From: an uncultured Bacillota bacterium | GTDB lineage: Bacteria; Sysuimicrobiota; Sysuimicrobiia; Sysuimicrobiales; Segetimicrobiaceae | Direction: 5' to 3' | DNA length: 64,000 nt | Assembly (NCBI GenBank): GCA_963804645.1 | Contig: CAWDRG010000005.1 | Coordinates: 224,001 to 288,000, forward strand | Shown here: positions 37,452 to 53,274 of the stretch, piece after piece | Position numbering within the stretch: the stretch's first letter is position 1 | How the letters are laid out: each line of letters begins with the position of its first letter | Made by a program: the position numbers and the translations under genes | Notes under the pieces: generated by a model | The model's input: the letters and a program-made list of their open reading frames with translations, nothing else | Told to the model about the DNA's origin: nothing | The model's database searches: none

Positions 37452-38060
37452 ATGATGCGGAGAGCGCTGATTGCCGGTGCCCTGGCGGCGACGCTGTGTG
37501 CGGCCACGGCCGCGGGCGCCCAGGACACCCGCAAGATCGTGGCCGTCGTGGATTTCCAGGACGACGTGCACGGATGGACGAACACGAGCCAGGTCGTGAC
37601 CGATCGGCTGATCTCAGAGCTCAGGAACGACGCCGCGGTGCAGGTCTTAGCGCGCGGGCAGGTGGAAACCGCGCTGCAGAGCGCCAACGTGGGGACGCAG
37701 GGAGTGCTTGACGCGGGGGCCGCCCAGAAGATTGGACAATCGCTGGGGGCCGCCTACGTGGTGATGGGAGAGATCGACCAGTTCAACTGGGAGTACCACA
37801 GCGCGACCGTCCTCGTAGCGACGATCGTCCAGCAATCGGCCACTGTGGACCTCAAAGGCAAAGTGCTGGACGTGACGGGTGGACAGGTGATCGGGCAGCC
37901 CCAGGGCAAGGGGCAGATCACACAGACCGGCGGATCCACCTGGGTCGGGCCGTGGTGGTCCGACGTGTCGGTGGACAACTTCGACAACGAGCTGATCGGC
38001 AAGGCCACCAAGCAGTCGGTCGAACAGTTCGCGAAACAGGCGGTCCCGATGCTGAAATAG
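37452..38060 (+). CDS. Secreted CsgG/TolB-N-like protein
   Basis: Signal peptide; VAVVDF, AQKIGQSLGAAYVVMGEI, KVLDVTGGQVI; GGAGGAG RBS. Confidence 0.7.
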   Translation: MMRRALIAGALAATLCAATAAGAQDTRKIVAVVDFQDDVHGWTNTSQVVTDRLISELRNDAAVQVLARGQVETALQSANVGTQGVLDAGAAQKIGQSLGAAYVVMGEIDQFNWEYHSATVLVATIVQQSATVDLKGKVLDVTGGQVIGQPQGKGQITQTGGSTWVGPWWSDVSVDNFDNELIGKATKQSVEQFAKQAVPMLK

Positions 38061-38194
38061 GCCGCCGCGGCGGCCCACCACGGTGCTCCTGACACAACCG
38101 GACCGGGCCCGGGCCTCCGTCCCGGACGCACCCGGGGCACAGGGCCGGTGGAAGCCCCTGTGCCCGCGGTCCCCTCGCCGTCCGTGCGCGCTCC

Positions 38195-40597
38195 CTACGC
38201 CCCGGCGGGCGGCGTGAACGTCGTCACCACCGGCGGCGTCCCCACGTACTTCTCCACCTGCACCAGCACCGAGTTCGTCGGGTTCCCGCCCGACAACTTC
38301 GAACTCGGCGTGTCCGTCGTCAGGTTGTTCACGTTCCCGTGCCGGTCCAGCGTCCCCACCGACCCCGGCGTCAGCGGATCCGACCACGCCCCCTCGTTCA
38401 GCACCATCACGCCCCGCCGCACCCGCGCCGTCACCAGCGCCCCCGCCAGCGTCTGCCCCCGCCCGTTGAACACCCGCACCACGTCGCCGTTCATGATCCC
38501 CCGCGCCGCCGCGTCCTGGGGGCTAATCCAGAGCGGTTCCCGCCCCGCCACCTCATACGCGTGCCGCAGCCCCGTCTGATCCAACTGCGAGTGCAGCCGG
38601 TTCTTCGGGTGCGACGATAGCAGGTGCAGCGGGTACTGCGCCGTCTCCGGACTCCCCAGCCATTCCGTCGGCGGCAGCCACGTCGCGTGCGGCGGCGTGT
38701 CGTCATAGTTGAACCCCGCGATCGTGCTCGAGTACAGCTCGATCTTCCCCGACGGCGTCCCGAGCGGGTTGTTCGCCGGGTCGGCGCGGAACTGCGCGTA
38801 CGCGACCACCTCGTTGGCGGCATCCGGGGTGGGGAACTCCAGGTACCCCTGCTTCCAGAACGTGTCGAAGTCCGGCATCGTCAGACCCCGCTCCTGAGCC
38901 TGCTGCACGGCCGCCCCGTAGAACTGCCGCAGCCACGCCATCTCGTCCTTGCCCTCCGTGTACTGCTGACCGAAGCCGAGACGGGACGCCAGCCCGGCGC
39001 AGATGTCGAAGTCGCTGCGCGATTCGAACAGCGGCGGCACCATCTGCTGCATCGCCATGATAAACCGGTCGGTGTTGAACAGGTCGTTGCGCTCCATCGT
39101 CGTCGTCGCCGGCAGCACGATGTCGGCATGCCGCGCGGTCGGCGTCCACGCGTAGTCGTGCACGATCGTGACCTCCGGCCGCTGCCACGCCACGAACGCC
39201 CGGTTCGTGAACTGCGCCTGATTCAAGTGGTTCGACCCCGCCAGGTACACCAGCTTGATGTCCGGATACGTCAGCTTCCGCCCGTCGTAGTCCACCGTCT
39301 TCCCCGGACTCTGGATCAGGTCGATCCACAGGTTGAGCGGCACGAAGTCCTTCACGGGATTGACGCCCGCGGACAGCCCCGGCACGCTCGGCGCGCTCCC
39401 GAACGGCACGCCCAGCGCACCCGGGAAGTCGCACTGCAGTCCGCCGCCCGGAAGGCCGATCTGGCCGAGCATCGATGACAGCGTAATGAGCATCCAGATC
39501 GGCTGCTCGCCGTGCGACGACCGCTGCAGCGAATATCCTCCGATCAGCATCGTCCGGGACTTGGCCATCCGGCGCGCAAGCGTGCGAATCGTCTCGGCCG
39601 GCACCTCCGTGATCGCGGCCGCCCACTCCGGCGACTTCGCCTGCCCGTCGCTCTTCCCGCTCAGGTAGTCCGCGAACTGCGCAAATCCCACCGTGTACTT
39701 GTCCAGAAACGCCTTGTCGTACAGGTTCTCCGTGTACAGCACGTGCGCAAGGCCCAGCATCAGCGCCGTGTCCGTGTTCGGCCGGATCACGATCCGCTCG
39801 GGCCGCAGGTACTGGTCCGTGTCCGATTCCACCGGGTTGACCGAGACCACCGGGATCTTCGCGTCCCGCAGCCGTGCGATCCACTCCATGTCGAAGTGTC
39901 CGGCGGAGCCTCCGGACCGCATCTCGGCGTTGCGCAGCGGGTCGTATCCCACCGTGACGATGAGCGTGGTGTTTTTCAGGATGACCGGCCAGACCGACTG
40001 CCGCGGCGCCGCATCGCCCAAGATGTGCGGCGTGATCACCGGCAGCACCGGTGCGCTGTACGAGTTGATCCGGAACACAAACCCGCCGTACATCGTCAAC
40101 ATCCGCTGCACGGCCCCGCCGCCGCTGTGAAAGTTGCCCGGGCTCTGCCAGCCCTGCGACGAATAAATCGACCGGTTGCCGTACTGGGTCTTCACGCGCT
40201 TCAGCTCGCCGGCGACGATGTCGAGCGCCTCGTCCCACGACACGCGCACGAACGGCTCGAGGCCCCGCTGCGTCGCGTCGCTCTGCGACCGGTTCTTGTA
40301 GAAGCCCTGACGGATCATCGGGTACTTCACGCGATCCGGGGCATACAGCAGATCCGGCATCGCCGTGACCATCGCGTTCGGGTAGCGATCCGTGGCGAAC
40401 GGCACCGTCTTCACGAGCCGGCCGCCCACGACCTGACCACTGTACGGGCCCCAATGGGCAACGCCCAGGCGCGTGCCGGGTGGAGCATCCGCGGCCGCCG
40501 CGCCGACGGGCAACGCCCCCATCAGCGGTGCCACCATGGTGCCTCCGACGAGCAGCCCGCTCTGACTCAGGAACGACCTTCTGGTAATTGGCTTCAT
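38195..40597 (-). CDS. Tat-exported molybdopterin oxidoreductase, DMSO/TMAO/biotin-sulfoxide reductase family (copy 1)
   Basis: TRRSFL Tat motif; AHWG, RVKYPMIR, FVRVSWDEA, Ser ligand in SYSAPV, PNTDTALMLG, ADIVLPATT, RLHSQL. No N-terminal Fe-S cysteines. Confidence 0.92.
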   Translation of the reverse strand: MKPITRRSFLSQSGLLVGGTMVAPLMGALPVGAAAADAPPGTRLGVAHWGPYSGQVVGGRLVKTVPFATDRYPNAMVTAMPDLLYAPDRVKYPMIRQGFYKNRSQSDATQRGLEPFVRVSWDEALDIVAGELKRVKTQYGNRSIYSSQGWQSPGNFHSGGGAVQRMLTMYGGFVFRINSYSAPVLPVITPHILGDAAPRQSVWPVILKNTTLIVTVGYDPLRNAEMRSGGSAGHFDMEWIARLRDAKIPVVSVNPVESDTDQYLRPERIVIRPNTDTALMLGLAHVLYTENLYDKAFLDKYTVGFAQFADYLSGKSDGQAKSPEWAAAITEVPAETIRTLARRMAKSRTMLIGGYSLQRSSHGEQPIWMLITLSSMLGQIGLPGGGLQCDFPGALGVPFGSAPSVPGLSAGVNPVKDFVPLNLWIDLIQSPGKTVDYDGRKLTYPDIKLVYLAGSNHLNQAQFTNRAFVAWQRPEVTIVHDYAWTPTARHADIVLPATTTMERNDLFNTDRFIMAMQQMVPPLFESRSDFDICAGLASRLGFGQQYTEGKDEMAWLRQFYGAAVQQAQERGLTMPDFDTFWKQGYLEFPTPDAANEVVAYAQFRADPANNPLGTPSGKIELYSSTIAGFNYDDTPPHATWLPPTEWLGSPETAQYPLHLLSSHPKNRLHSQLDQTGLRHAYEVAGREPLWISPQDAAARGIMNGDVVRVFNGRGQTLAGALVTARVRRGVMVLNEGAWSDPLTPGSVGTLDRHGNVNNLTTDTPSSKLSGGNPTNSVLVQVEKYVGTPPVVTTFTPPAGA

Positions 40598-40787
40598 CGC
40601 GACCTCCCCATCCGTGTTGGTTCGTAGACCGCGGGTCGCACGTGCACCCGGTCCACGACCCCCTACACCATACCGACTGCCCGGGCCGGCGTGCATCCGC
40701 TCTCAACCCGATTCCGCGTACGGCCGCGTGGGCGACGCGTCGGGCGCGGCACGACCGTGCGGGACGAAAATTACTGCCTCGGACGGA

Positions 40788-40816
40788 TAGGCGCGCTGCG
40801 CAAACTCCGATACAGT
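40788..40816 (+). promoter_or_regulatory. Promoter of 6S-like RNA copy 1
   Basis: TAGGCG-N17-TACAGT; the RNA terminal stem starts 7 nt after the -10. The same geometry occurs in copy 2. Confidence 0.65.
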
Positions 40817-40822
40817 GTGGGT

Positions 40823-41002
40823 GGAGCGCACACGGCGACGTGCCGGATCACATGCCGCGGTCGCGGGAGTTACGCATCGGCCACGTTCACTTCGGACCGG
40901 CGCCCGAGCGGGCTTGGGCACGATCCCGGAGAGCACCAGCCGACGGGAGACCCCGAGGACCACGCCTGAAGATGGCACAGGCCGTTCTAGTAGGTGCGCT
41001 CC
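40823..41002 (+). ncRNA. 6S RNA-like rod-shaped ncRNA (copy 1, ~180 nt)
   Basis: Nested stems GGAGCGCAC/GTGCGCTCC, ACGGC/GCCGT, GTGCC/GGCAC, GGTC/GACC, a central bubble, TCGGC/GCCGA, CTTCGG/CCGGAG and apical GCCCGAG/CTTGGGC; T-run after the 3' end. Confidence 0.75.
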
Positions 41003-41173
41003 TCGAATTTTTCCAACGCTCCGAACCTGACCATGCACTGTCACCGATGGACGTGCATGACCCGTCCGCGCCGTGGGCGAGGACTTTCCGGACCGGCGCA
41101 GAACTTCGCGACCGGGCGCCCCGCTGCGGGCGCACCGAGGGATGGAACCAGCGGAACTCGAGGAGGTTCAAGC

Positions 41174-42505
41174 ATGAATGCCACACTCACGCGACGCGAC
41201 GTGCTGGCCGCCGCGGCCCTCGCCCTGGCCGGCCTGGCGTCTGGGGACGCGGCATCGGCGGCGGTTCCGAAGGTCGGCCCGATCAACATCTTGATCAACG
41301 ACTCGCCCTGGTACCACGGCTTTGAGCAGCTGGTACAGCTGTACCAGCAAACAACGGGCAATCAAGTCAAACTCACCGTCACGCCGTTCACCGGCATGCT
41401 CGAGCAAACGCGCAACACGGTCACCGGCCCCGAAAGCACCTTCGACATCGTGAATTTGAACGAAGCGTGGTACGCGACGTTCTACGCGGGCGGGTTTGTG
41501 TCCCCGATCAAGTCGATCGATCCCAGTTTCCAGCTGGATCCCAATATTATCGAGTACGTCTACTCGACCCGGTGGAACTTTCAGAAGAAGTACTCGACCC
41601 CGGACGGCGCCCTGCTCGGCCTCCCGATCAACGGGAACATCCAGGCGCTCTATTACCGCGCGGACCTCTTCCAGCAGGCGGGGCTCAAACCGCCGGAGAC
41701 CTGGACTGACGTCGCCGCGGCGGCGAAGCGGTTCCACAATCCGCCGAACATGTACGGGTTTGCCCAGCGCGGCCAGCGGGCGGGATGGTCGTGCGGGTTT
41801 GACTGGTTTGCGTTCCTCCGCGCCCATAAGAGCGACTGGGTCGCCAATCCGCCGGCCGACTGGGCCGTGACGATCGACAGCGCCGCGGCCAAGGCGTCCC
41901 TCGCGGAATGCGACGACCTGCTCAAATCCTATGGACCGCCGAATCTCGCGGGACTCGGCAACGCCGAACTGACCCAACTGTTGGCGAGCGGCAAGTTGGC
42001 GATGGCGAACGCGGTGATCGCGACCTTCCCGTTGCTCGACGACCCTCAGAGTTCGGCCGTCGTCAACAAGGTCAACGTCACGGTGATGCCGAGGGCGGCG
42101 AACGGGGTGCACGCGACGACGTCTGGCATCTGGGTCATGTCGATTCCTCACAACCTCCCGGACGCGCGGAAGAAGGCGGCGCTGACCTTCTTACAGTGGG
42201 CGCTCACGAAAGACGCACAGATCCAGTACACGAAATTCGGGGCCATCCCGGTGCGCCAGGACGTGTACAAGTCCGATCTTGCCAACCAGCCCCAATTCCG
42301 CTGGATGAAGGCCATGGCCGCGAGCACCTCGTACATCCACGAAAACGTCCGCATTCCGGAAGGCCCGCAGATTACGGACAGCATCGAGCTGCACGTGAAT
42401 CAGCTGTACGCGGGCCAGATGTCCGTCGACCAAGCGGCCGACGCGATGGCCCAAGACATCTACGGCATCTTGCAAAAGGGAGGGTACCCGACGAAGCGCG
42501 GCTGA
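41174..42505 (+). CDS. Carbohydrate ABC substrate-binding protein with Tat-like signal
   Basis: TRRDVL, LYYRADLF...PPETW; AGGAGG RBS. Confidence 0.9.
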   Translation: MNATLTRRDVLAAAALALAGLASGDAASAAVPKVGPINILINDSPWYHGFEQLVQLYQQTTGNQVKLTVTPFTGMLEQTRNTVTGPESTFDIVNLNEAWYATFYAGGFVSPIKSIDPSFQLDPNIIEYVYSTRWNFQKKYSTPDGALLGLPINGNIQALYYRADLFQQAGLKPPETWTDVAAAAKRFHNPPNMYGFAQRGQRAGWSCGFDWFAFLRAHKSDWVANPPADWAVTIDSAAAKASLAECDDLLKSYGPPNLAGLGNAELTQLLASGKLAMANAVIATFPLLDDPQSSAVVNKVNVTVMPRAANGVHATTSGIWVMSIPHNLPDARKKAALTFLQWALTKDAQIQYTKFGAIPVRQDVYKSDLANQPQFRWMKAMAASTSYIHENVRIPEGPQITDSIELHVNQLYAGQMSVDQAADAMAQDIYGILQKGGYPTKRG

Positions 42506-42535
42506 GCGCGGCCGTCGGCGGCCAACCCGCGCGCG

Positions 42536-43303
42536 TTATCGTTCGGCGCCGCCGACCCAGCGTACCGCGCCGGTCCAAAAGCGGGCATACTGGTTCCACC
42601 TCGTGAAGTATTCGCCCCAATGCGGACACGGGTCCGAGCTGAACGCGAGCACGCGGGCCCGGCCGAAGGTGCCGACCGCCAGGAGCGGGTACTCCTCGAT
42701 CGTGGCCAACAACACTGCCCCGGGCTTGAGCTTAGACTTGTTGTAGCCGAAGAAGACCGGACAGTCCTCCCAAGGAATATCCCGCGTGACCGGATGGTCC
42801 GCCTTCAGAATACGAGGGCGTACGCCTTCCGGCGTATCCTCACGATCGTCCACGACGTTCAGTACCTCGAGCGGCAGCGCCTCGGCGAGCGCCGTCCCGT
42901 ACCAGTGCGCCGCCCCGTTGCGGCCCTGAAAGCTGACGTACCCGCCCGCATAAATCAGCCCGCCTCCCTCGCGGACAAACCGCGTCAGTTCGCGCATGCG
43001 GTTCGGCCGAGGGCGGAGCGGCTGCCCCTCCTCCAGCGGATAGGTCGTAAAGGTGTCGGCCCCAATGTCGCTGAGGATGACCACGTCGTAGTCGGCGCGG
43101 AGCGCCTCCGCCGTTTCGGGAAACTGCATGAAGGTCAGGTACGGCGGCAGGTGCGTGACCCTGATGTCGGGATCGGACGCGAGCGCGTTTCGCAGATGGC
43201 GGGCCGCATCTTTCACGCGGCTGACGTACTGGGTCACCTCGGCACCCTTCACCTCGGTCTCGAGCCGAATCGAGCCGTCTCCCACGTACAACACGCGAAT
43301 CAT
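42536..43303 (-). CDS. Class I glutamine amidotransferase-like protein (DUF1355 type)
   Basis: YDVVILSDIGA, GGLIYAGGYVSFQG, SDPCPHW. Confidence 0.82.
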   Translation of the reverse strand: MIRVLYVGDGSIRLETEVKGAEVTQYVSRVKDAARHLRNALASDPDIRVTHLPPYLTFMQFPETAEALRADYDVVILSDIGADTFTTYPLEEGQPLRPRPNRMRELTRFVREGGGLIYAGGYVSFQGRNGAAHWYGTALAEALPLEVLNVVDDREDTPEGVRPRILKADHPVTRDIPWEDCPVFFGYNKSKLKPGAVLLATIEEYPLLAVGTFGRARVLAFSSDPCPHWGEYFTRWNQYARFWTGAVRWVGGAER

Positions 43304-43382
43304 ATGCACAACCTCCGGTCGGAGTATCCTGCCACGCGCGGCCCCGCCGCATGCCCGATCGGCCCCGCGCGCCGCCAGGCGG

Positions 43383-44687
43383 TCACGACAGGGGCCGCGC
43401 GGGCCCGCGGGGCGACACTTGATCCGGATCGTTCGCCACCGCGCCGGCGGGGACCGGCAGACGGCCGGTGCGAAGTGGATCGTCGGTCTCCGCCATCCAC
43501 CGCTCGAGGCGCGCCCGCATCTCGAGCAGCGCGGCCGCGTAGGCCGGCGATTCGGCGACGTTGCACGCCTCCCCGGGATCAAAGACCAGGTCGTACAACT
43601 GCTCCGCGGTGACCGGACGATCCCGCCACCCAGACGCGAGCCACAGGTCTTTTCCGGGGCTGTCGTCCGTGTTCGCGAGCACCGGTGTCGCACGGCCGTC
43701 AAAGCGCCGGATGTACTTGTACCGGCGCGTGCGCACGGCACGCTGCGGTTCGTACGCCGCGTGGTAGTTGATTTCAGCCACGACCTGATCGCGGACCTCG
43801 TCCGCATCCCCGCGCACCAGAGGCAGCAGCGACGTCCCCTGCACCCAGCCGGGGGCGGAAATCCCGAGCAACTCGCAGAGCGTCGGAAACAAGTCGATAT
43901 GAGACACCAGCGCGTCGCAGACCCGTCCGCCGGTGAAGCCCCCGGGACCCCGCAGCACCAGCGTCACGCCGATGCCGTGGTCCGTCAACGTACACTTCAT
44001 CCCGGGAAACGGCGGCCCGTGGTCGGTCGTAAAGATGACCAGCGTCTCTCCCGCTCCTCCTCGGCCGTCGATCGCGCGCAGGACCTCCCCGACTCCCTCG
44101 TCGAGCGCCCGGAGGCTGGCGTTGAACGCGGCGACATCGCACCGGATGGCCGGCGTGTCGGGCAGCGTTGGCGGAGGCAGACAATAGCGCGGGTCCGCGG
44201 CGGCTCCGGGCGGCGGAAATTCACGGTGGGTCTCCCAGAACCCCACGGACAAGAAAAACGGCCGGTCAGGCGGCTGCGTAAGAAATGCCGCGGCGGCCGA
44301 CGCCACGTCTCGCGCGCACCGGCTCGCTGCGGCGAGGGTCGCATCGTATCCGACGCGGACCGTCCGGCGCGCGATGTGCTGCACCCCGACGGCGGCGCTG
44401 TAGTATCCGGCCGTACGCAACGTATGCACCAGGTGACGGCCGTAGTCGTACAGAGCGAATCCGCGATGCGCCAATCCGAGCATGCCGTTCGTATGCGGAT
44501 ACTGCCCGGTCAGCAGTGCGGCGCGGCTCGGCGAACACGTCGGCGCGGCGCTGTATGCCTGCCGGCAGAGCATTCCGTCTTCCGCGAGCGCCTGGATGTT
44601 CGGGGTCGGGACGTCATGGCCAAATGGACGCACGTAGCGCCCGGTGTCGTGGGAATGCAGGTACACGATGTTTGGCGGTCGCGTCAT
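43383..44687 (-). CDS. Cys-type formylglycine sulfatase (sulfamidase/SGSH-like)
   Basis: PNIVYLHSHD, CSPSRAALLTG, TTDHG, EQLYDL..DP.E. Confidence 0.92.
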   Translation of the reverse strand: MTRPPNIVYLHSHDTGRYVRPFGHDVPTPNIQALAEDGMLCRQAYSAAPTCSPSRAALLTGQYPHTNGMLGLAHRGFALYDYGRHLVHTLRTAGYYSAAVGVQHIARRTVRVGYDATLAAASRCARDVASAAAAFLTQPPDRPFFLSVGFWETHREFPPPGAAADPRYCLPPPTLPDTPAIRCDVAAFNASLRALDEGVGEVLRAIDGRGGAGETLVIFTTDHGPPFPGMKCTLTDHGIGVTLVLRGPGGFTGGRVCDALVSHIDLFPTLCELLGISAPGWVQGTSLLPLVRGDADEVRDQVVAEINYHAAYEPQRAVRTRRYKYIRRFDGRATPVLANTDDSPGKDLWLASGWRDRPVTAEQLYDLVFDPGEACNVAESPAYAAALLEMRARLERWMAETDDPLRTGRLPVPAGAVANDPDQVSPRGPARPLS

Positions 44688-45745
44688 CTGATAATCTCCT
44701 CCGCGTGTGTCTCAGCGGCACGGTAGATCGCCTCGGCGATCACCACCGCCGCCAACCCGTCGTGGGCAGACCGATCAGGCGGTGCCTCGCCCCTCACCAT
44801 CGCCAGCCAATGGCGATGCTGCCGCAGCCCGACGTCTTCGGGAACAATCTCCGGCGCGACCCACCCGCTGTCACGGTGCACCGCCAGCGGCCCGCGCTCG
44901 GTACGCAGCCACGCCGTTCCGCGTGTCCCGTAGATCTCCAGGCGGAACCGATCGGTGCCGGCGCGTTCGGCATAGCACATCTCATGGACGCCTCGCAGCC
45001 CGCTGTCAAACGTATAGAGCGCGAGCGCCACGTCTTCGAGTTCGGGCACCACCACCCGACCCTCCCGGATGGTGCGTTCGTGCACGGTCCTCGCGGTTGT
45101 CGCCTGGACCGCCCGAATCTCGCCAAAGAGGTACCGCAGCAGATCGATCCCGTGGCTGCCGAGCTGCATCACGACCCCGCCTGCCGCCTGGTCCTTGCGG
45201 TAGAACCATGCCGCCCAATCCGCCCCGGGGGTCGCGTTGCGCTGAGACACCATGGCCAGCGACCCCAGCGCCTCTTCCGCAAGCAGCCGGCGGATCGTCT
45301 CGATCTCGGGGAAGTATCTGTGCATGAAACTGACGCACAGCAACACCCCGGCGTGCTCCGCAGCGGCCATGATCTCGAGACATTCCGCGCGGTTGCGCGC
45401 CATCGGTTTCTGCAGCAAAATGGCCTTCCCGGCGCGCGCCGCGTCCACGGCCATGGGCGCGTGGGTGAAATCCGGCGTGGCGATCACCACGGCATCAATA
45501 TCGCGCCGGTCCAGAATATCCTGGTACCGGGTTGTCGCCATGGGAACGCCATGCCTCCGGGCCTCGGCCTGCACCCTCTCGCCGTCGCGGCTAAACAACG
45601 CGACGACCGCGGCGCCCGCGTCCTGCAGCCCTCGGATGTGGTACGCGCTGATGGAGCCCGCGCCCAAGACGCCCACCCGAACGCGCATGAGGCCGGCCGC
45701 GCGCGTACGCCGCACAGAGACCGGCAGCGCGTCCCGACCGCTCAC
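44684..45745 (-). CDS. Gfo/Idh/MocA family oxidoreductase
   Basis: GVLGAGSI, ATPDFTH, GKAILLQKP, GSHGID. Confidence 0.9.
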   Translation of the reverse strand: MSGRDALPVSVRRTRAAGLMRVRVGVLGAGSISAYHIRGLQDAGAAVVALFSRDGERVQAEARRHGVPMATTRYQDILDRRDIDAVVIATPDFTHAPMAVDAARAGKAILLQKPMARNRAECLEIMAAAEHAGVLLCVSFMHRYFPEIETIRRLLAEEALGSLAMVSQRNATPGADWAAWFYRKDQAAGGVVMQLGSHGIDLLRYLFGEIRAVQATTARTVHERTIREGRVVVPELEDVALALYTFDSGLRGVHEMCYAERAGTDRFRLEIYGTRGTAWLRTERGPLAVHRDSGWVAPEIVPEDVGLRQHRHWLAMVRGEAPPDRSAHDGLAAVVIAEAIYRAAETHAEEIIR

Positions 45746-46572
45746 TTGAGGGCGCCCAGGGTCAGCCCCCGCACGATCTGCCGCTGCGCCAGAACGACGA
45801 CGATGATCGCCGGGATCGTGGCAAAAAATGCGGCCGCGCTCATGTCGCCGTAGCGGATGACGTACTGCTGCGCGTACTTGGCGATGCCGACCGGAATCGT
45901 CACGGCGTTCGTGGCCGTCAGGTTCAGGGCGAAGAGAAACTCGTTCCAGCTAAACACAAAACTCAGAATCGCGACGGCCGCGAGTCCCGGAGCGATCAGC
46001 GGGGCAACGATCTGGACAAACGTCCGGACGTTCGAGGCCCCGTCGATGTGGGCCGCCTCCTCTAGCTCCGTCGGCAGGTCGCCCACGAAGCTCTGCACGA
46101 TCCAGACGGCCATCGGCAGGTTGAGCACCAGGTAGGATAGGATGAGCGCGAGCCGGGTGTCGTACAGTCCGAGCGCACGGAACAAGAGGTAGTAGGGGCC
46201 AACGATCGTGACACCGGGCACCATGTGGAAGATTAACACCCACCCGGCGACGATCGCGGCCGTGTGTCGCGGCCAACGAAACCGCTCCAGGCTGTAGCCC
46301 GCAAGCGCCGCCACCACCACCACCAACGCCGTGGCGACGCTCGCCACCACGAGGCTATTGACCGTGTTCACGATGAAATTGGACTGCAGACTAAAAAATA
46401 GGTGGGTGTAATTGTCCAGCGTCGGCCGGAACACCCACGCCCCGGTGAGGATATCGATCTGGTACTTGATCGACGTGAGGAACGTCAGGACGAAGGGGAT
46501 CAACGTAACAAGCACGCCGAGGGCGAGGACCGGCAGTGCGAGCGCCGGCGAGCGCCGGCCGAAGATCCTCAC
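45742..46572 (-). CDS. Carbohydrate ABC permease (MalG-like)
   Basis: LEEAAHIDGA, WNEFLFA. Confidence 0.92.
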   Translation of the reverse strand: MRIFGRRSPALALPVLALGVLVTLIPFVLTFLTSIKYQIDILTGAWVFRPTLDNYTHLFFSLQSNFIVNTVNSLVVASVATALVVVVAALAGYSLERFRWPRHTAAIVAGWVLIFHMVPGVTIVGPYYLLFRALGLYDTRLALILSYLVLNLPMAVWIVQSFVGDLPTELEEAAHIDGASNVRTFVQIVAPLIAPGLAAVAILSFVFSWNEFLFALNLTATNAVTIPVGIAKYAQQYVIRYGDMSAAAFFATIPAIIVVVLAQRQIVRGLTLGALK

Positions 46573-47561
46573 GCGCGCGCCTCTCGGCGGCGGGCCGCGC
46601 GTAGGTAGACCGCCACAAATACCACGGTCGTGAGGATCGTGACAACGGAGAGAAACGCGGCGTAGCCCATGCGGGACTGCGGAAAAAACACCTGATAAAT
46701 GTAGAAGCTGATCACTTCGGAAGCCGTCCCGGGGCCGCCGCCGGTCAACAGAAAGACCTCATCGAACACCTTGAAGGCAAAAATCGTCCGAAAGAGCACC
46801 GCCACGAGAATCGTCGGTCGCAGCAGCGGAAGGACGACATACCGGAGCACTTGCCATCCCGACGCCCCGTCCACGCGCGCGGCCTCGATCGGCTCGGCGG
46901 GCAACGATTCGAAGCCGGCGAGCATCAAGAGAAACACAAACGACGTCCAGTGCCAGATATCGACAACCATGATCGAAGGAAGCGCCAGGTGGGGATTCGC
47001 GGTCCAGCTCTGGGCCGGCAGGTGCAGGAATCGCAGGACGACGTTGAAAATCCCGGTTTCGTAGTTGTACATCAGACTCCAGATCGTGCCGATCGCGATG
47101 CCGGGCACCAGGATTGGAATCATCAACAGTTGCCGTGCAAGACCGGCCGCTCTCCCGACTTCACTCGCGAGCAGCGCCAAGGTGAACCCGAGCACGGTTT
47201 CCACCACGACCGTCACGACAACAAACACGATCGTGTTGCCGATCGCGGCGAAAAACACATGGTCGCGCAGCAACGTGCGGAGATTGTCGAGGCCCGACCA
47301 CGTCCAAATGACCTGCCCTTGGCCGAAGGACACCGTCGAGAAGCTCATGCCGACCAACTCGAGGAGCGGGAACACGGTGAGCGCCAGCAACACCAACAGG
47401 GCCGGCAGGAGCGCCCAGTACTGAAACGCGCGATCGAACCGCTCGCCGAGCGGTCCGCGACGTCTCGGCGCGGTCTCGCGCGCCCCCGTGCTCCCAAACG
47501 CACAGCCTTTCACGCCACTCTCCGTGCGCGTCGATTCGCACATCCGGTCGACGCGACTCAC
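46569..47561 (-). CDS. Carbohydrate ABC permease (MalF-like); start uncertain
   Basis: DIWHWT, IEAARVDGA, LTGGGP. Confidence 0.9.
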   Translation of the reverse strand: MSRVDRMCESTRTESGVKGCAFGSTGARETAPRRRGPLGERFDRAFQYWALLPALLVLLALTVFPLLELVGMSFSTVSFGQGQVIWTWSGLDNLRTLLRDHVFFAAIGNTIVFVVVTVVVETVLGFTLALLASEVGRAAGLARQLLMIPILVPGIAIGTIWSLMYNYETGIFNVVLRFLHLPAQSWTANPHLALPSIMVVDIWHWTSFVFLLMLAGFESLPAEPIEAARVDGASGWQVLRYVVLPLLRPTILVAVLFRTIFAFKVFDEVFLLTGGGPGTASEVISFYIYQVFFPQSRMGYAAFLSVVTILTTVVFVAVYLRAARRREARA

Positions 47562-47721
47562 CGCGGTCTGGAGCCGTCGGCGTCAAGGATCTCCGGGAAA
47601 CGGCCCCTCGCGCAGAGAAGCCGGTCGCTCGATATTCGCGACCATGCTACCCCGTCCTCCCGCGCGCCTACGGAGGATGAGTGGAGGAACCGTTTTGCGC
47701 GTCCCCGAACCCGAGTGCCGC

Positions 47722-48714
47722 ATGGGATATTTCCTCGGGGTCGACGGCGGTGCCTCCAGCACAAGCTGCGCGGTGTGCGACGATGACGGCGCAGTCCTCG
47801 GCATCGGCCGCGGGTACGCCAGCAACCACATCCTCGCGCCCGGCGGACGAGAGCGCGCGCGCGCCGCGGTCGGCGGGGCCATCCAGGCGGCACTGCGGGC
47901 AGCCGGGCTCGGGACGATCGAGTACCGTGCGGTCCAGTTCGGCATGACCGGAATCGTGGCAGGCAGCGAGCGTGCGGATGCGTTCGCGGAGGTCGCTGCG
48001 GATCTGCTCAAGGCCGAGACGGTGCTCATCCATGAGGATTCCTGGATTGCGCTCGCCGGCGCCCTGGCCTGCGGGTCCGGTGTCATGGTCATCGCCGGGA
48101 CCGGGTCGATCGCCGTGGGCCTGGATCCCGACGGCCGCGTCGCCCGCGCCGGGGGCTGGGGCTACCTCTTCGGAGACGACGGCAGCGCGTTCGCGTTGGG
48201 CCGCGGCGGCGTGCACGCCGCGCTCCACGCCCGCGACGGCACCGGGCCGGACACGAACCTGGTCGAGCACATCCCTGCGGTGGTCGGCATGGACCTGGCC
48301 GCGATCACGTGGGAGTATTACCAAGGACGTCTCGACCGCGCCGTGATCGCTCGGCTGGCCGCCGTGGTCACGGAGTCGGCCGCCGCGGGCGATCCCGTCG
48401 CCCGGCGCCTCGTCGCGGAGGCCGCCACGGCGCTGGCGAACCTTGCGGCGGCGGTGACCCACCGCCTTCACTGGCCTGATGGCGCCACCGCGGTCGCACC
48501 GGTGGGTGGGGTGTTCGACGCCGGCGCGACCATCCTGCATCCGCTGCGCGAGGCGCTCGCCTCCCGCGCCCCCGGGGCGGTTCTCGTGCCCCCGCGGTAC
48601 GACCCGGCCGCGGGCGCTCTGCTGCTGGCGCTGCGCGCGGCGGGTGTGCCGCACACCCCCGAGCGGCTCGCACTGCTCGCCGCGACGTGGGAACTGCGGT
48701 CGACCGCGCCGTGA
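47722..48714 (+). CDS. BadF/BcrA-type N-acetylhexosamine kinase
   Basis: LGVDGGASST, IAGTGS, RAGGWGYLFGDDGSA. Confidence 0.88.
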   Translation: MGYFLGVDGGASSTSCAVCDDDGAVLGIGRGYASNHILAPGGRERARAAVGGAIQAALRAAGLGTIEYRAVQFGMTGIVAGSERADAFAEVAADLLKAETVLIHEDSWIALAGALACGSGVMVIAGTGSIAVGLDPDGRVARAGGWGYLFGDDGSAFALGRGGVHAALHARDGTGPDTNLVEHIPAVVGMDLAAITWEYYQGRLDRAVIARLAAVVTESAAAGDPVARRLVAEAATALANLAAAVTHRLHWPDGATAVAPVGGVFDAGATILHPLREALASRAPGAVLVPPRYDPAAGALLLALRAAGVPHTPERLALLAATWELRSTAP

Positions 48715-49409
48715 GCTCCGGGTGGGAGCACCGGCTGCGGGGCGGCCTGATCGTGTCGTGCCAGGCGCTGCCGGACAGTCCCCTGCGTGATCCGGACATG
48801 ATCGCCGCGCTCGCACGATGTGCCGAGCGCGGCGGTGCCGTGGGCGTCCGCATCGACGGCCCGGCGGACATCGCCGCGGTCCGCCGCGTGGTCACCCTGC
48901 CGATCATCGGACTCTACAAGGTCGCCCGCGATCGACCGGTGTACATTACGCCGACGTTCGCGGAGGCGCACGCCATCGCGCACGCCGGAGCGGACCTCAT
49001 CGCGCTGCAGGCGACGCGAGAGCGCGGCACGGACCGGACCGCCGACCCGCTGGCCGCCCTCATCGCCCGCATTCACGCGGAATGCGGGATCCCGGTGATG
49101 GCGGATGTCTCGAGCCTGGACGAGGGGCTCGGGGCTGCCGCGAGCGGGGCCGATGTCGTCGCCACTACGATGGCGGGCTACACTCCGCACAGCCGGCAGA
49201 TGAGCGGACCCGATCTCGAGCTGATTCGCGAACTCGCCCAGGCCCTCGCCGTTCCGATCGTGGCCGAAGGACGGATCTCAACGCCGGAGGAGGCCGCGGC
49301 GGCGCGCCGCGCCGGCGCGTTTGCGGTGGTCGTCGGCCGCGCGATCACGATGCCTGAGGCCATTACGGCCAGGTTTGTCTCGGCCGTCGGCAGCGCTGCG
49401 GGTACCTAA
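48711..49409 (+). CDS. nanE: N-acetylmannosamine-6-phosphate 2-epimerase
   Basis: GLIVSCQA, PIIGLYK, VYITPT, MAD, TTMAGYT, AEGRI, VVVGRAIT. Confidence 0.93.
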   Translation: MSSGWEHRLRGGLIVSCQALPDSPLRDPDMIAALARCAERGGAVGVRIDGPADIAAVRRVVTLPIIGLYKVARDRPVYITPTFAEAHAIAHAGADLIALQATRERGTDRTADPLAALIARIHAECGIPVMADVSSLDEGLGAAASGADVVATTMAGYTPHSRQMSGPDLELIRELAQALAVPIVAEGRISTPEEAAAARRAGAFAVVVGRAITMPEAITARFVSAVGSAAGT

Positions 49410-49476
49410 CCAGGACGGGCACAGGGCCGGTGGAAGCCCCTGTGCCCGCGGTCCCCTCGCCGTCCGTGCGTGCGCT

Positions 49477-51882
49477 CTATGCCCCTGCGGGCGGCGTGAA
49501 CGTCGTCACCACCGGCGGCGTCCCCACGTACTTCTCCACCTGCACCAGCACCGAGTTCGTCGGGTTCCCGCCCGACAACTTCGAACTCGGTGTGTCCGTC
49601 GTCAGGTTGTTCACGTTCCCGTGCCGGTCCAGCGTCCCCACCGACCCCGGCGTCAGCGGATCCGACCACGCCCCCTCGTTCAGCACCATCACGCCCCGCC
49701 GCACCCGCGCCGTCACCAGCGCCCCCGCCAGCGTCTGCCCCCGCCCGTTGAACACCCGCACCACGTCGCCGTTCATGATCCCCCGCGCCGCCGCGTCCTG
49801 GGGGCTAATCCAGAGCGGTTCCCGCCCCGCCACCTCATACGCGTGCCGCAGCCCCGTCTGATCCAACTGCGAGTGCAGCCGGTTCTTCGGGTGCGACGAT
49901 AGCAGGTGCAGCGGGTACTGCGCCGTCTCCGGACTCCCCAGCCATTCCGTCGGCGGCAGCCACGTCGCGTGCGGCGGCGTGTCGTCATAGTTGAACCCCG
50001 CGATCGTGCTCGAGTACAGCTCGATCTTCCCCGACGGCGTCCCGAGCGGGTTGTTCGCCGGGTCGGCGCGGAACTCCGCGTACGCGACCACCTGGTTGGC
50101 GGCGTCCGTGACCGGGAATTCCAGGTACCCCTGCTTCCAGAACGTGTCGAAGTCCGGCATCGTCAGACCCCGCTCCTGAGCCTGCTGCACGGCCGCCCCG
50201 TAGAACTGCCGCAGCCACGCCATCTCGTCCTTGCCCTCCGTGTACCGGTCGCCAAGGCCCAGCCGGGGTGCCAGCCCCGCACAGATGTCGAAGTCGCTGC
50301 GCGATTCGAACAGCGGCGGCACCACCTGCTGCATCGCGATGATGAACCGGTCCGTGCTGCAGAGGTCGTTGCGCTCCATCGTCGTCGTCGCCGGCAGCAC
50401 GATGTCGGCATGCCGCGCGGTCGGCGTCCACACGTAGTCGTGCACGATCGTGACCTCCGGCCGCTGCCACGCCACGAACGCCCGGTTCGTGAACTGCGCC
50501 TGATTCAAGTGGTTCGACCCCGCCAGGTACACCAGCTTGATGTCCGGATACGTCAGCTTCCGCCCGTCGTAGTCCACCGTCTTCCCCGGACTCTGGATCA
50601 GGTCGACCCACAGGTTGAGCGGCACGAAGTCCTTCACGGGGTTGACCCCGGTCGGCAGCCCCGCCACGCTCGGCGCGCTGCCGATCGGCAGCCCCAACCC
50701 GCTGCTCGGCGAGTCAGCCTGCAGCCCGCCGCCCGGAAGGCCGATCTGCCCCAGCATCGACGCAAGGGTCACGAGCATCCAGATCGGCTGTTCGCCGTGC
50801 GACGCCCGCTGCATGGAGTATCCGCCCATCGTGATCGTGCGCGACTTAGCCATCCGGCGCGCGAGCGTGCGAATCGTCTCGGCCGGCACCTCCGTGATCG
50901 CGGCCGCCCACTCCGGCGACTTCGCCTGCCCGTCGCTCTTCCCGCTCAGATAGTCCGCGAACTGCGCAAACCCCACCGTGTACTTGTCCAGAAACGCCTT
51001 GTCGTACAGGTTCTCCGTGTACAGCACGTGCGCAAGGCCCAGCATCAGCGCCGTGTCCGTGTTCGGCCGGATCGCGATCCGCTCGGGCCGCAGGTACTGG
51101 TCCGTGTCCCCTTCCACCGGGTTGATCGAGACCACCGGGATCTTCGCGTCCCGCAGCTGCGCGATCCATGCCATGTCGAAGTGCGTGCCGTTCCCGCCCG
51201 AACGCATCTCCGCGTTCCGGAGCGGATCGTGCCCGAAGAATACGATCAGGGTGCTGTGCTGGAGAATCACCGGCCATGCCGACTGCCGCGGCGCCGCATC
51301 GCCCAAGATGTGCGGCGTGATCACCGGCAGCACCGGCGCGCTGTACGAGTTGATCCGGAACACGTAGCCGCCGTACATGCCCAACAGACGCTGTACGGCC
51401 CCGCCGGCACTGTGAAAGTTCCCGGCGCTCTGCCAGCCTTGCGCCGAATAGATCGACCGGTTGCCGTACTGGGTCTTCACGCGCTTCAGCTCGCCGGCGA
51501 CGATGTCGAGCGCCTCGTCCCACGACACGCGCACGAACGGCTCGAGGCCCCGCTGCGTCGTGTCGCTCTGCGACCGGTTCTTGTAGAAGCCCTGGCGGAT
51601 CATCGGGTACTTCACGCGGTTCGGAGCGTACAGCAGATCCGGCATCACTGTGACCATCACGTTCGGGTAGCGATCCGTGGCGAACGGCACCGTCTTCATC
51701 AACCGTCCCCCTGCCACCTGGGCGCTGAACGGGCCCCAATGCGCGACGCTGATGCGCGTCGCGGTCTCGGCATCTGCGGCCGCCGCGCCGGTCGGCAGCA
51801 CCCCTACCAGCGGCGCTGCCACCACGCCTCCGAGGAGCAACCCGCTCTGGCTCAGGAACGACCTTCTCGTGACTGGTTTCAT
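49477..51882 (-). CDS. Tat-exported molybdopterin oxidoreductase, DMSO/TMAO/biotin-sulfoxide reductase family (copy 2)
   Basis: Same motifs as copy 1; the C-terminal ~190 aa are identical by eye. Confidence 0.92.
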   Translation of the reverse strand: MKPVTRRSFLSQSGLLLGGVVAAPLVGVLPTGAAAADAETATRISVAHWGPFSAQVAGGRLMKTVPFATDRYPNVMVTVMPDLLYAPNRVKYPMIRQGFYKNRSQSDTTQRGLEPFVRVSWDEALDIVAGELKRVKTQYGNRSIYSAQGWQSAGNFHSAGGAVQRLLGMYGGYVFRINSYSAPVLPVITPHILGDAAPRQSAWPVILQHSTLIVFFGHDPLRNAEMRSGGNGTHFDMAWIAQLRDAKIPVVSINPVEGDTDQYLRPERIAIRPNTDTALMLGLAHVLYTENLYDKAFLDKYTVGFAQFADYLSGKSDGQAKSPEWAAAITEVPAETIRTLARRMAKSRTITMGGYSMQRASHGEQPIWMLVTLASMLGQIGLPGGGLQADSPSSGLGLPIGSAPSVAGLPTGVNPVKDFVPLNLWVDLIQSPGKTVDYDGRKLTYPDIKLVYLAGSNHLNQAQFTNRAFVAWQRPEVTIVHDYVWTPTARHADIVLPATTTMERNDLCSTDRFIIAMQQVVPPLFESRSDFDICAGLAPRLGLGDRYTEGKDEMAWLRQFYGAAVQQAQERGLTMPDFDTFWKQGYLEFPVTDAANQVVAYAEFRADPANNPLGTPSGKIELYSSTIAGFNYDDTPPHATWLPPTEWLGSPETAQYPLHLLSSHPKNRLHSQLDQTGLRHAYEVAGREPLWISPQDAAARGIMNGDVVRVFNGRGQTLAGALVTARVRRGVMVLNEGAWSDPLTPGSVGTLDRHGNVNNLTTDTPSSKLSGGNPTNSVLVQVEKYVGTPPVVTTFTPPAGA

Positions 51883-52128
51883 CGCGTCCCCCCCGCCGTG
51901 CTAGTCTCCCGCGTACCGCCGCTGGGCGGGTCGGCACCCGCCGCCCCTCCACCGGTCCCGCGGGTCGAAGTTCTCACCAAAACAGAGATGGAACTCCGCC
52001 ACGTCTACCATACCGACGGCCCGGGCCGACGCCTATCCCCTCTCAACCTGATTCCGCGCTCGCACGGCAGACCCGCCTGAGGGTGACGCGCCTCGGCCGC
52101 GCGCGGCGCAAATAGTCTCTCGGACTGA

Positions 52129-52157
52129 TAGGCACGCGGGAAATCGTGGGATACACT
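52129..52157 (+). promoter_or_regulatory. Promoter of 6S-like RNA copy 2
   Basis: TAGGCA-N17-TACACT; the RNA stem begins 7 nt after the -10. Confidence 0.65.
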
Positions 52158-52163
52158 ATGCAT

Positions 52164-52340
52164 GGAGCGCACGCGGCGATGTGCCGAGTCAAACGCCGCG
52201 GTCGGGATGCCGAGAGTCGGCCACGTTCACTCCGGGCAGTCGCCCAAGAACGACGGGCAGGACGCCGGAGAGCACCAGCCGACGGTAGGCCCCGGAGGCC
52301 GCGTCTGAAGACGGCACCGGCCGCACCAACAGTGCGCTCC
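52164..52340 (+). ncRNA. 6S RNA-like rod-shaped ncRNA (copy 2, ~177 nt)
   Basis: GGAGCGCAC/GTGCGCTCC, GCGGC/GCCGC, GTGCCG/CGGCAC, GCGGTC/GGCCGC, bubble, TCGGC/GCCGA, CTCCGG/CCGGAG; followed by TAAATTTTT. Confidence 0.75.
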
Positions 52341-52416
52341 TAAATTTTTCGCCGGAGACTCGCACCGATGCCGCCGTGTCGATTTGACGACGCGTACGGC
52401 ACGCCGACGCCCGGCG

Positions 52417-53274
52417 TCAGCCCAACTTGCGGAGCCGCGGGTCGAGCATATCCCGCACGCCGTCGCCCACAAAGTTGAACCCGAGCACGAGGCACAGAAT
52501 CGCGAGCGCGGGAAACGTCGCGATCCACCACTGGTCCATCAGGAAGTTGCGCCCTTCGGAGACCATGAGTCCCCACTCCGGCGTCGGCGGCTGCGCCCCG
52601 AACCCGATAAACGACAGCCCCGCCGAGATGAGGATGATGGAGCCGATGTTGAGCGTCGCCTGGACGAACAGCGGCGCGAGCGCGTTGGGGATGAGATGGC
52701 GCACGATGATGACGACGTCGGTGGCCCCCTGCGCCCGCGCGGCTTCGACATAGTCTTTCGTCCGCAGCGTCAGGATCTGGGCACGCATCACCCGTGCATA
52801 CGACGGCCATGAGGTAATCGCGATTGCGATCAGGGCGTTCGTCAGGCTCGGTCGCAGAATGGCGGAGATCGCCATGGCCAGAATCAAACTCGGAAACGCC
52901 AGGAACATGTCCGTCACGCGCATCAGCGACTCGTCCCACCACGCCCCCAGCCAGCCGGCGCTGGTGCCGGTGATGACGCCGAACGCGGCAGCGGCCGATA
53001 CCACGGTGATGCCGGAGACGACGGAGATGCGGGCGCCGTAGACCACCCGGCTGTAGACGTCGCGGCCGAGCGAGTCCAGACCGAACGGGTGCGCGGTGCT
53101 CGGCGCCCCGAGCCGCTTCGCGAGATCCTGGGCGAGCGGGTCTTGAAGGGCGAGCCACGGGGCGAGCAGCGCGATCAGCACGAACGCCGCGATCAATCCC
53201 ACGCCGATCAGCGTGAGCGGACTCCGGCGCACCGCACGCCAGGCGACGTGCGTGGCCCCGCGGTCCCGGGTCAC
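52417..53274 (-). CDS. Peptide ABC permease (DppC-like)
   Basis: HPFGLDSLGRD, YVEAARAQGA, PEWG, GDGVRDMLDPR. Confidence 0.92.
   Translation of the reverse strand: MTRDRGATHVAWRAVRRSPLTLIGVGLIAAFVLIALLAPWLALQDPLAQDLAKRLGAPSTAHPFGLDSLGRDVYSRVVYGARISVVSGITVVSAAAAFGVITGTSAGWLGAWWDESLMRVTDMFLAFPSLILAMAISAILRPSLTNALIAIAITSWPSYARVMRAQILTLRTKDYVEAARAQGATDVVIIVRHLIPNALAPLFVQATLNIGSIILISAGLSFIGFGAQPPTPEWGLMVSEGRNFLMDQWWIATFPALAILCLVLGFNFVGDGVRDMLDPRLRKLG

Follow-up and report, generated by a model that had tools for sequence, protein, structure and literature searches.

What are the two long, look-alike hairpins that occupy intergenic segments of a 64,000-nucleotide stretch of DNA (contig CAWDRG010000005.1, positions 224,001 to 288,000; hereinafter the window) from an uncultured bacterium: 6S RNAs, appendages of the genes beside them, or genes in their own right? 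An earlier note on this DNA had read them as 6S-like RNAs, either divergent 6S paralogues or a related new class. We find that they belong to a new, uncatalogued RNA family, whose general type, a self-contained small RNA (sRNA) gene with a rod-shaped product, is familiar, and which is not a member of the 6S family; the part of the earlier reading that survives is that they are independent, structured and paralogous sRNA genes on the plus strand, and the part that falls is their 6S identity. We consider it probable that both elements (copies A and B; Table 1) are separately transcribed sRNA genes of ~180–190 nucleotides (nt), whose products would act in trans as protein-binding RNAs and represent condition-specific isoforms of the family.

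Two paralogous rods in the window

Copy A is closed by a helix in which GGAGCGCAC (40823–40831) pairs with GTGCGCTCC (40994–41002), and its 3′ tail ends in TTTTT at 41008–41012; in copy B, 52164–52172 pairs with 52332–52340, the rod spanning 52164 to 52340, and the T-run lies at 52345–52349. Both are unbranched, irregular rods of ~185 nt (range 177–190 nt), with folding energies of −87.6 kcal/mol for copy A (z −2.9; 1 of 200 dinucleotide shuffles as good) and −94.3 kcal/mol for copy B (z −4.5; 0 of 200). On a 54-pair consensus the two copies differ in 11 of 108 paired columns (10%) versus 34 of 73 unpaired columns (47%), and the eight changed pairs comprise three double-sided changes with pairing kept, three wobble-compatible single changes and two pairs broken in one copy, a count that is biased toward pairing because the structure was derived from the same sequences. 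Their alignment contains single-base indels and no common reading frame.

Upstream of copy A we found AAATTAC (40768–40774), followed by GGATAGGCG at the −35 position (with TAGGCG at 40788–40793), a 17-nt spacer and the −10 hexamer TACAGT (40811–40816). The corresponding elements of copy B are AAATAG (52110–52115), TAGGCA (52129–52134), again a 17-nt spacer, and TACACT (52152–52157), and in each copy the first stem base lies 7 nt past the second hexamer. At this level the observations of the earlier note were borne out: both intergenic hairpins are present as described, each with its TTTTT tail; the three compensatory changes that it named are all visible in the alignment of the copies; and the hexamer pairs TAGGCG/TAGGCA and TACAGT/TACACT occur with the 17-nt spacer, yet fall below the threshold of a generic sigma-70 scan.

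A family of two types

Searching the genome by BLAST with copy A recovered a third copy (C11:201708–201896; here and below, C, G, L and f are our labels for contigs, genomes, loci and families), which is likewise divergent from a gene for a molybdoenzyme with a twin-arginine (Tat) signal. A covariance model built from these three copies (R1) scores copy A at 201.3 bits and copy B at 209.2 bits, matches all 23 genomes of the window's family with one to five matches each, and finds five copies in this 5.3-Mb genome. Three of the five are the copies used for the model, hereinafter type 2, and the remaining two, nearly identical to each other, represent a second class, type 1 (C9:30419–30594, minus strand, and C15:319978–320153, plus strand; loci L043/L126 and L044; R1 matches at C9:30419–30593 and C15:319981–320151). 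When a further covariance model (R2) was built from 20 type 1 sequences only, with the window copies excluded, it matched copy B at 50.9 bits (E 7e-11) and copy A at 32.5 bits (E 2e-6), both across model positions 1–177. Since a model of type 1 alone thus matches the window copies at full length, the two types are homologous, and the window copies are type 2 paralogues of the ~175-nt type 1 RNA.

Type 1 RNAs measure ~175 nt, show 87% identity between genera, and have GGAGGCGC/GCGCCUCC as their closing helix and CUUCGGGG-GUAA-CUCCGGAG as their apical hairpin. Type 2 RNAs, including the window copies, are closed by GGAGCGCAC/GUGCGCUCC and often have an extended apex, which in the window copies is ~30 nt longer than in type 1; a helix GUGCCG/CGGCAC occupies the place of the type 1 internal loop AGUA opposite GAA. 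Because both this AGUA/GAA loop and the GUAA tetraloop are absent from the window copies, we set them apart as the type 2 subclass. They retain the elements that are invariant in both types, namely UCAAAC opposite GAAGA, the apical stem CUUCGG/CCGGAGA, GGUAGG and the closing helix GGAG(C/G)GC, with copy A departing from them at UCACAU and GGGAGA.

Some loci show other arrangements. Tandem type 1 genes ~310–335 nt apart, each with its own promoter region, occur in G013 (C21:20783–20959 and 21091–21267) and G021 (C33:96040–96215 and 96375–96551). Partial matches without the closing helix were recovered at G003:C100:10416–10538 and G001:C124:69830–69952 (model positions 25–147), with further ones on G003:C110 and G001:C122 (model positions 66–107); these may be copies that were truncated, a variant of shorter length, or fragments. 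A weak R2 match within the window itself (58106–58208, minus strand; 15.7 bits, E 0.025) is probably noise.

Covariation, internal loops and coding strand

The compensatory pairing first noticed between the two window copies holds once relatives are added (59 distinct and 16 type 2 sequences). Alignment A8 contains 60 matches (59 distinct rows) spread over the phylum. Standard pairing accounts for 93.5% of its 3151 cells and 35 of 54 pairs change on both sides, with 334 cells carrying such changes, and in the 16 type 2 sequences of alignment A10, 92.3% of cells are paired and 23 of 54 pairs are compensatory; both sets of counts are favoured by the fact that the alignments were fitted to the structures of the models, R2 in the case of A8. 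None of 500 column shuffles attains any of the five measures for A8, nor do 500 shuffles of A10 reach its values, and sliding the partners of A8 by one to three columns lowers pairing to only 36–52%.

The fold supported by these alignments is a series of eight short helices set between small, nearly invariant internal loops: GAAGUA opposite GAAAAG, AAAC opposite NRAA, GAAA opposite GGUA, and CACGUGGAC opposite GGUAGGAACCGGCGG. By hand count the apical GUAA loop is retained in 59 of 60 rows, the exception being L202. Type 1 has one 7×6 and two 4×4 loops; in the window copies no loop exceeds 4×4, apart from a 7–8-nt 3′ bulge beside the closing helix. A reading of the 7×6 loop as a k-turn, attempted by hand, was dropped as its G-A positions do not fit.

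The direction of transcription can be judged from the asymmetry of wobble pairs. In A8 there are 390 G-U versus 74 A-C cells, and 93.5% of cells are paired versus 83.5% if the opposite strand is assumed; type 2 alone gives the same direction with a weaker margin (46 versus 22 cells; 92.3% versus 89.3%). These counts, the promoter and the U-tract agree in indicating that the rod RNA of the window lies on the plus strand.

The same data bear on the notion that the window elements are non-functional palindromes, such as miniature inverted-repeat transposable elements, repetitive extragenic palindromes or a large terminator hairpin, which were copied together with a duplicated gene. Such an origin would account for their position at the end of a segmental duplication (see below), for their nature as long imperfect palindromes of which either strand folds, and for the presence of several copies in certain genomes (as many as 8 in G002). 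It is scarcely credible in view of the phylum-wide conservation with compensatory changes, the co-conserved promoter at a fixed distance, the stable syntenic position of type 1, the mere five copies in a 5.3-Mb genome, and the distribution of differences between copies A and B, which affect 47% of unpaired and 10% of paired columns.

Phyletic distribution and comparison with known RNA families

Across the phylum of the window, for which searches at the level of order, class and phylum gave the same 94 genomes, R2 matches 74 (72 of 92 when the unpublished genomes G034 and G078 are left out). By family, matches were found in 22 of 22 genomes of f1, 32 of 34 of f5, 17 of 22 of f2, the single genomes of f6 and f7, none of 12 of f4, and not in the one genome of f3. 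Outside f1 there is mostly one copy and at most two per genome, whereas f1 reaches 8 (G002); the window's genus is the richest, with 3–8 copies in five of six relatives, one in the 65%-complete G004 and five in the window's genome. No match was obtained in 151 sampled Bacillota genomes, for this sample under stricter filters. The nearest named records are uncultured metagenome-assembled genomes, one of which, labelled ‘Bacillota bacterium’ at NCBI, is G003 of the window's genus. As far as searched, the family is restricted to this uncultured high-G+C phylum.

Comparison with Rfam 15 (4227 families) gave no match at the gathering score over the whole window and none at E ≤ 1 in 14 loci that hold the rod RNA. 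At E ≤ 10 only chance-level matches appeared, to the L31 leader, Sphinx_1, CRISPR-DR20, M23 and AAC_AAD_leader for the window copies and to sucC (13.4 bits), mir-207 and GlsR20 for a type 1 copy. The sucC motif (RF01759; E 3), a motif of Pseudomonas, shares a 16-nt CGAAGACGGU.A.A.G that fits the unstructured 3′ flank of its model; the score is far under the gathering score of 50 and there is no common structure, and the likeness is probably due to chance. The stretch concerned lies in the conserved 3′ strand of type 1 (L126:1529–1562), and the same motif occurs in the window at 52303–52318. Full-text literature searches, which covered neither subscription journals nor supplements, returned no description of such an RNA. 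The identity of the signal recognition particle RNA (RF01854/RF00169) was also rejected: that RNA is encoded elsewhere in the genome (C10:47659–47921, 204.9 bits).

Among characterized RNAs, Ms1 of mycobacteria provides one parallel as a lineage-restricted, rod-like sRNA linked to stress. It is an abundant, ~300-nt, actinobacterial 6S-like rod that binds the RNA polymerase core, occurs alongside 6S or in its stead and is associated with stationary phase or stress; the rod RNA is shorter and comes from another phylum, and it is set apart from Ms1 by this description and by having no match in Rfam. A second parallel is offered by orphan structured RNAs of bacteria such as raiA, OLE and ROOL, which were discovered through comparative genomics, have no assigned function and likewise combine strong covariation, invariant loops, a conserved GNRA loop and a narrow range with no known partner. 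The rod RNA is smaller than these and unbranched, and their Rfam families do not match it.

Relationship to 6S RNA

According to one published account, 6S RNA is defined by two irregular arms that flank a largely single-stranded central bubble, binds the RNA polymerase holoenzyme in a sigma-dependent manner, templates product RNAs (pRNAs) and is released after their synthesis, and Firmicutes such as B. subtilis carry two differently expressed paralogues, 6S-1 and 6S-2 (PMC10578484). The rod RNA resembles 6S (SsrS, RF00013; ~180–200 nt) in being encoded by a gene of its own and in folding, with its 5′ and 3′ ends paired to each other, into an irregular rod without branches. One might accordingly propose that it is a divergent 6S paralogue or a functional 6S analogue, a promoter mimic that would bind the holoenzyme and whose stress copies might tune transcription in dormancy. 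The ~175–190-nt length, the irregular rod shape and the pair of paralogues in Firmicutes would fit such a proposal, as would the fact that canonical 6S went undetected in the window's genome and in G001–G005, of the very genus that is richest in rod RNA.

We regard this proposal as unlikely on several counts. The 6S model RF00013 (gathering score 46.4 bits) has no match in the window at that score, none on copies A and B at E ≤ 10, none on type 1 copies at E ≤ 1 or E ≤ 10, and none anywhere in the window's genome at E ≤ 1; in control genomes, among them those of E. coli and B. subtilis, the same model does find matches. The 177–190-nt window rods do have two irregular arms in the manner of the ~200-nt 6S rod, but the consensus structures contain no largely single-stranded central bubble and show short, sequence-invariant internal loops in its place. 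In three respects the 6S reading of the earlier note is not supported: neither copy is matched by RF00013, the central bubble resolves into small internal loops in the covariation-supported fold, and the supposed echo of Firmicutes 6S RNAs in GTGCC...AGCACC...GGCAC found no support in any search.

Moreover, canonical 6S scores above the Rfam cut-off at loci apart from the rod RNA in 63 of the 94 genomes (61 of 92 without G034 and G078), most of which also carry the rod RNA. For example, G046 has 6S at C1:2697358–2697546 and rod RNA at C1:710644–710816 and C1:2283537–2283710. Folded in the same manner, the 6S RNA of this phylum adopts the classic architecture, in which the centre is open and a 3′ hairpin (CACCCACCUG...CAGGUUCGGG) is present, and it bears no likeness to the rod RNA. 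The window elements are not the cell's 6S RNA, and the idea of an RNA polymerase decoy is left as an unlikely functional analogy.

A 6S RNA of the window's genome itself was recovered neither by BLAST with the 6S of G006 nor with a conserved 6S pattern derived from alignment A9, although in an assembly that is 96.8% complete a missing match falls short of absence. Within the genus, 6S is weakly detected in G006 alone (43.9 bits) and undetected in six of the seven genomes (G000–G006), including G001, G002, G003 and G005 in a re-search at E ≤ 1 and G004 at E ≤ 0.1, whereas the other genera of f1 yielded it in 14 of 16 genomes. This pattern may reflect a single loss or divergence event, the assemblies being related and incomplete. 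The rod RNA might constitute a new class of global regulatory or ribonucleoprotein (RNP) RNA, with a housekeeping isoform, whose promoter carries elements resembling the DnaA box and the SOS box, and with dormancy or hypoxia isoforms; in the window's genus, with its expansion to 3–8 copies and its mostly undetectable 6S, it may have assumed the role of 6S by sequestering the transcription or translation machinery. We consider this combination unlikely. Were such a substitution for 6S real, it would be a rare replacement of a near-universal regulator.

Promoters and gene neighbourhoods across the phylum

Type 1 genes are mostly single-copy and syntenic, and phylum-wide they are preceded by a near-consensus promoter: TTGAC(G/C), 17 nt, and an extended −10 TGnTAnnnT, with the first stem base ~7 nt on. 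Abutting the −35 is GAAC-N4-GTTC (exact in 22 of 60 regions), and farther upstream, between −120 and −36 of the A8 loci, 41 of 60 regions contain DnaA-box-like 9-mers in the same orientation that deviate at no more than one position, versus 0.7 expected from shuffles, related genomes not being independent. The recA and lexA promoters of this genome carry GAACATATGTTT and GAACATCTGTTT (GAACAT(A/C)TGTTT), and from their likeness to GAAC-N4-GTTC a LexA-type site at type 1 promoters is plausible; the spacing of this candidate element differs in f1. These elements suggest that type 1 may be controlled by DnaA and/or LexA. Each of this genome's type 1 copies has a strong TTG-N17-TGnTAcaA promoter, with a perfect TTATCCACA and the palindrome ATCCGGA-N18-TCCGGAT upstream.

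The gene order around type 1 in f1 is Peptidase_M20, DUF1844, RNA, DUF255 (DUF255 in 11 and Peptidase_M20 in 10 of 18 loci), and in f5 and f2 the RNA comes after glmS and acpS, with yjeF-alr in divergent orientation; YjeF was found in 11 of 20 loci, a set of 20 that includes five with a type 2-like promoter. Type 2 genes have a different promoter with a weak −35, seen in 15 f1 loci, in which CGAT(A/G)G(C/G) takes the −35 position and AATAC lies 10 nt further upstream. The same layout precedes copies in G046, G062, G061 and G069 (f5) and G059 (f2), and is also found upstream of L190. The window hexamers agree with 7 of 12 positions (hand count) versus a scan threshold of 9 of 12, and as the two window promoters fall under the generic sigma-70 threshold, type 2 promoters are probably activator-dependent.

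In 12 type 2 loci of relatives, the neighbours include GAF/HisKA_3 sensor kinases in head-to-head orientation (4), HSP20 (3), phosphofructokinase (PFK; 3), Beta-Casp nucleases (3), LonB-like proteases (2), FBPase (2), Usp (1) and a CBS+BON protein (1), and PFK, CBS+BON and Usp recur near type 2-like copies in f5 and f2. This set recalls the hypoxia or dormancy regulons of actinobacteria. A scan of this genome with the type 2 promoter motif P2 gave 7 strict matches versus 2 for a reversed control, among them the known C11 copy and one that precedes a permease and pyridoxal-phosphate-enzyme gene, which is too thin to define a regulon. At another of these matches, G000:C22:21353 (minus strand; L208), a type 2-like promoter, AATAC-N10-CGATAGGCG-N17-TATGCT, precedes a gene for a ferredoxin-domain and pyridine-nucleotide oxidoreductase and one for pyruvate:ferredoxin oxidoreductase, which hints at a small anaerobic regulon sharing this promoter.

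The neighbourhoods also permit a judgement on whether the window elements are cis-regulatory, either as leader or riboswitch to the molybdoenzyme gene, responding for instance to the molybdenum cofactor, or as the leader of a downstream transporter gene. Each of the three type 2 copies in this genome is situated upstream of a molybdoenzyme gene, copy A is 160 nt ahead of a same-strand solute-binding-protein gene, and by energy the reverse strand folds equally well. Set against this, the G-U versus A-C counts, promoter and U-tract all place the RNA on the other strand from the molybdoenzyme genes; no molybdenum cofactor or other riboswitch family matches in Rfam; copy B has no same-strand gene downstream, the permease gene there being convergent; type 2 in relatives adjoins unrelated genes (molybdoenzyme in 0 of 12 loci); and the type 1 neighbours vary by family, with DUF255 ahead in f1 and a divergent yjeF in f5 and f2. 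A cis-acting element is thus highly improbable, and both it and an origin as junk palindromes are largely excluded.

Representation in RNA libraries

Four peat metatranscriptome runs from one study hold parts of the region, and we placed their contigs on 38000–53000. Contigs from two of these runs lie on the two RNAs, one of 197 nt on 40834–41031 (copy A) and one of 155 nt on 52211–52365 (copy B), and others cover both molybdoenzyme genes and the solute-binding-protein gene. The window copies are present in RNA libraries. Across the four runs no contig covers 42008–49522, 40655–40833 or 41032–41179, gaps that are uninformative on transcript ends or DNA carry-over.

Proposed mode of action and points against it

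In the reading that we favour, that of separately transcribed, trans-acting sRNA genes, each rod gene would extend from a promoter of its own to the closing helix and the U-tract after it. The product would act as a scaffold or decoy for protein and not through antisense pairing, as the invariant, purine-rich internal loops together with the conserved apical stem suggest recognition by a protein or other macromolecule over antisense pairing; recognition would proceed through these loops and the stem CUUCGG/CCGGAGA, on which type 1 carries the GUAA loop. The housekeeping role would fall to type 1, and type 2 would comprise paralogues placed under a different promoter in stress- or anaerobiosis-related neighbourhoods, having lost one conserved loop, and would serve as a condition-specific isoform, probably for oxygen limitation or stress, co-regulated with its divergent neighbours. 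The sequence features, fold, covariation, distribution, distinctness from 6S and representation in RNA libraries are direct results; we infer the transcript ends, the inducing condition and the mode of protein binding.

Several points weigh against this reading. Generic sigma-70 and terminator scans made no call at copy A or copy B, the rod being too long for the rule of the terminator scan, and several type 2 relatives have no clear U-tract. The reverse strands of both copies fold slightly better by energy, a measure that is blind to strand, and the pairing counts of A8 and A10 carry the bias noted above. Both RNA-library contigs extend 16–19 nt beyond the T-run, and assembled contigs are blind to ends, strand and level and may stem from DNA in an RNA library. 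A molybdoenzyme neighbour accompanies all three type 2 copies here and none of the 12 relative loci, and the stress or anaerobic theme is read from Pfam names in genomes that are related and not independent. The resemblance of AGUA/GAA and its adjacent helix to the sarcin-ricin (loop E) motif, finally, is a presumed one.

An RNA of ~175 nt whose loops are invariant, whose pairs covary strongly, whose promoter is deeply conserved and which is nearly universal in the phylum bears the signature of an important RNP or regulatory RNA, and the combination of a housekeeping gene with paralogues in stress neighbourhoods that lack one conserved loop offers a natural experiment toward the partner of the rod RNA. 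For annotation, the case illustrates that ‘6S-like rod’ is unsafe as a call from shape alone, and the R1 and R2 definitions would permit rod-RNA genes to be annotated in soil and peat metagenomes.

Segmental duplication and gene context in the window

The presence of two rod genes in the window is explained by duplication of one RNA-plus-molybdoenzyme unit (Table 1). Each 2.9-kb unit includes an RNA copy as its last ~190 nt, and unit A terminates exactly at the T-run of the RNA. By blastn, identity is 92.1% over 2493 columns in the coding part and 74.5% over 357 columns in the intergenic and RNA part.

Table 1. Coordinates of the rod-RNA genes and associated features in the window (strand: +, plus; −, minus;., not stranded)
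Feature	Position	Strand	Evidence
Copy A of rod RNA (type 2)	40823..41012	+	Sequence, fold, R1 and R2 matches, RNA-library contig
Copy B of rod RNA (type 2)	52164..52349	+	Sequence, fold, R1 and R2 matches, RNA-library contig
Type 2 promoter region, copy A	40768..40816	+	Sequence; same layout in related type 2 loci
Type 2 promoter region, copy B	52110..52157	+	Sequence; alignment of upstream regions
Segmental duplication unit A (partner, unit B, 49417–52350)	38135..41013	.	blastn of both regions
Tat-signal (RRSFLSQSGLL) molybdopterin S/N-oxide reductase, BisC/TorA family, neighbour of copy A	38195..40597	−	Pfam, NCBIfam
Paralogous S/N-oxide reductase, 801 amino acids, neighbour of copy B	49477..51882	−	Pfam, NCBIfam, alignment
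Conserved intergenic block (partner 52007–52060), between RNA promoter and molybdoenzyme gene	40667..40720	.	Alignment, blastn

The two molybdoenzymes share 91% protein identity and a twin-arginine signal, and as their genes are on the minus strand the rod RNAs are transcribed divergently from them. The neighbour of copy A is a protein of 800 amino acids from an ATG at 40597, a start inferred from alignment with the neighbour of copy B; it contains the Pfam domains Molybdopterin, Molydop_binding and Molybdopterin_N, and scores 942.8 bits against NCBIfam bisC_fam, under the cut-off of 1017.55. The conserved block between each RNA promoter and molybdoenzyme gene is presumably the latter's own promoter or 5′ region. 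Within the duplicated genes, the stretches 38294–38693 and 39094–39293 have 99.5–100% DNA identity with their counterparts in unit B (49576–49975 for the first), and the rest of the genes is ~84–96% identical outside these blocks. Such near-identical blocks suggest gene conversion between the molybdoenzyme paralogues, from which the RNA part would have been excluded.

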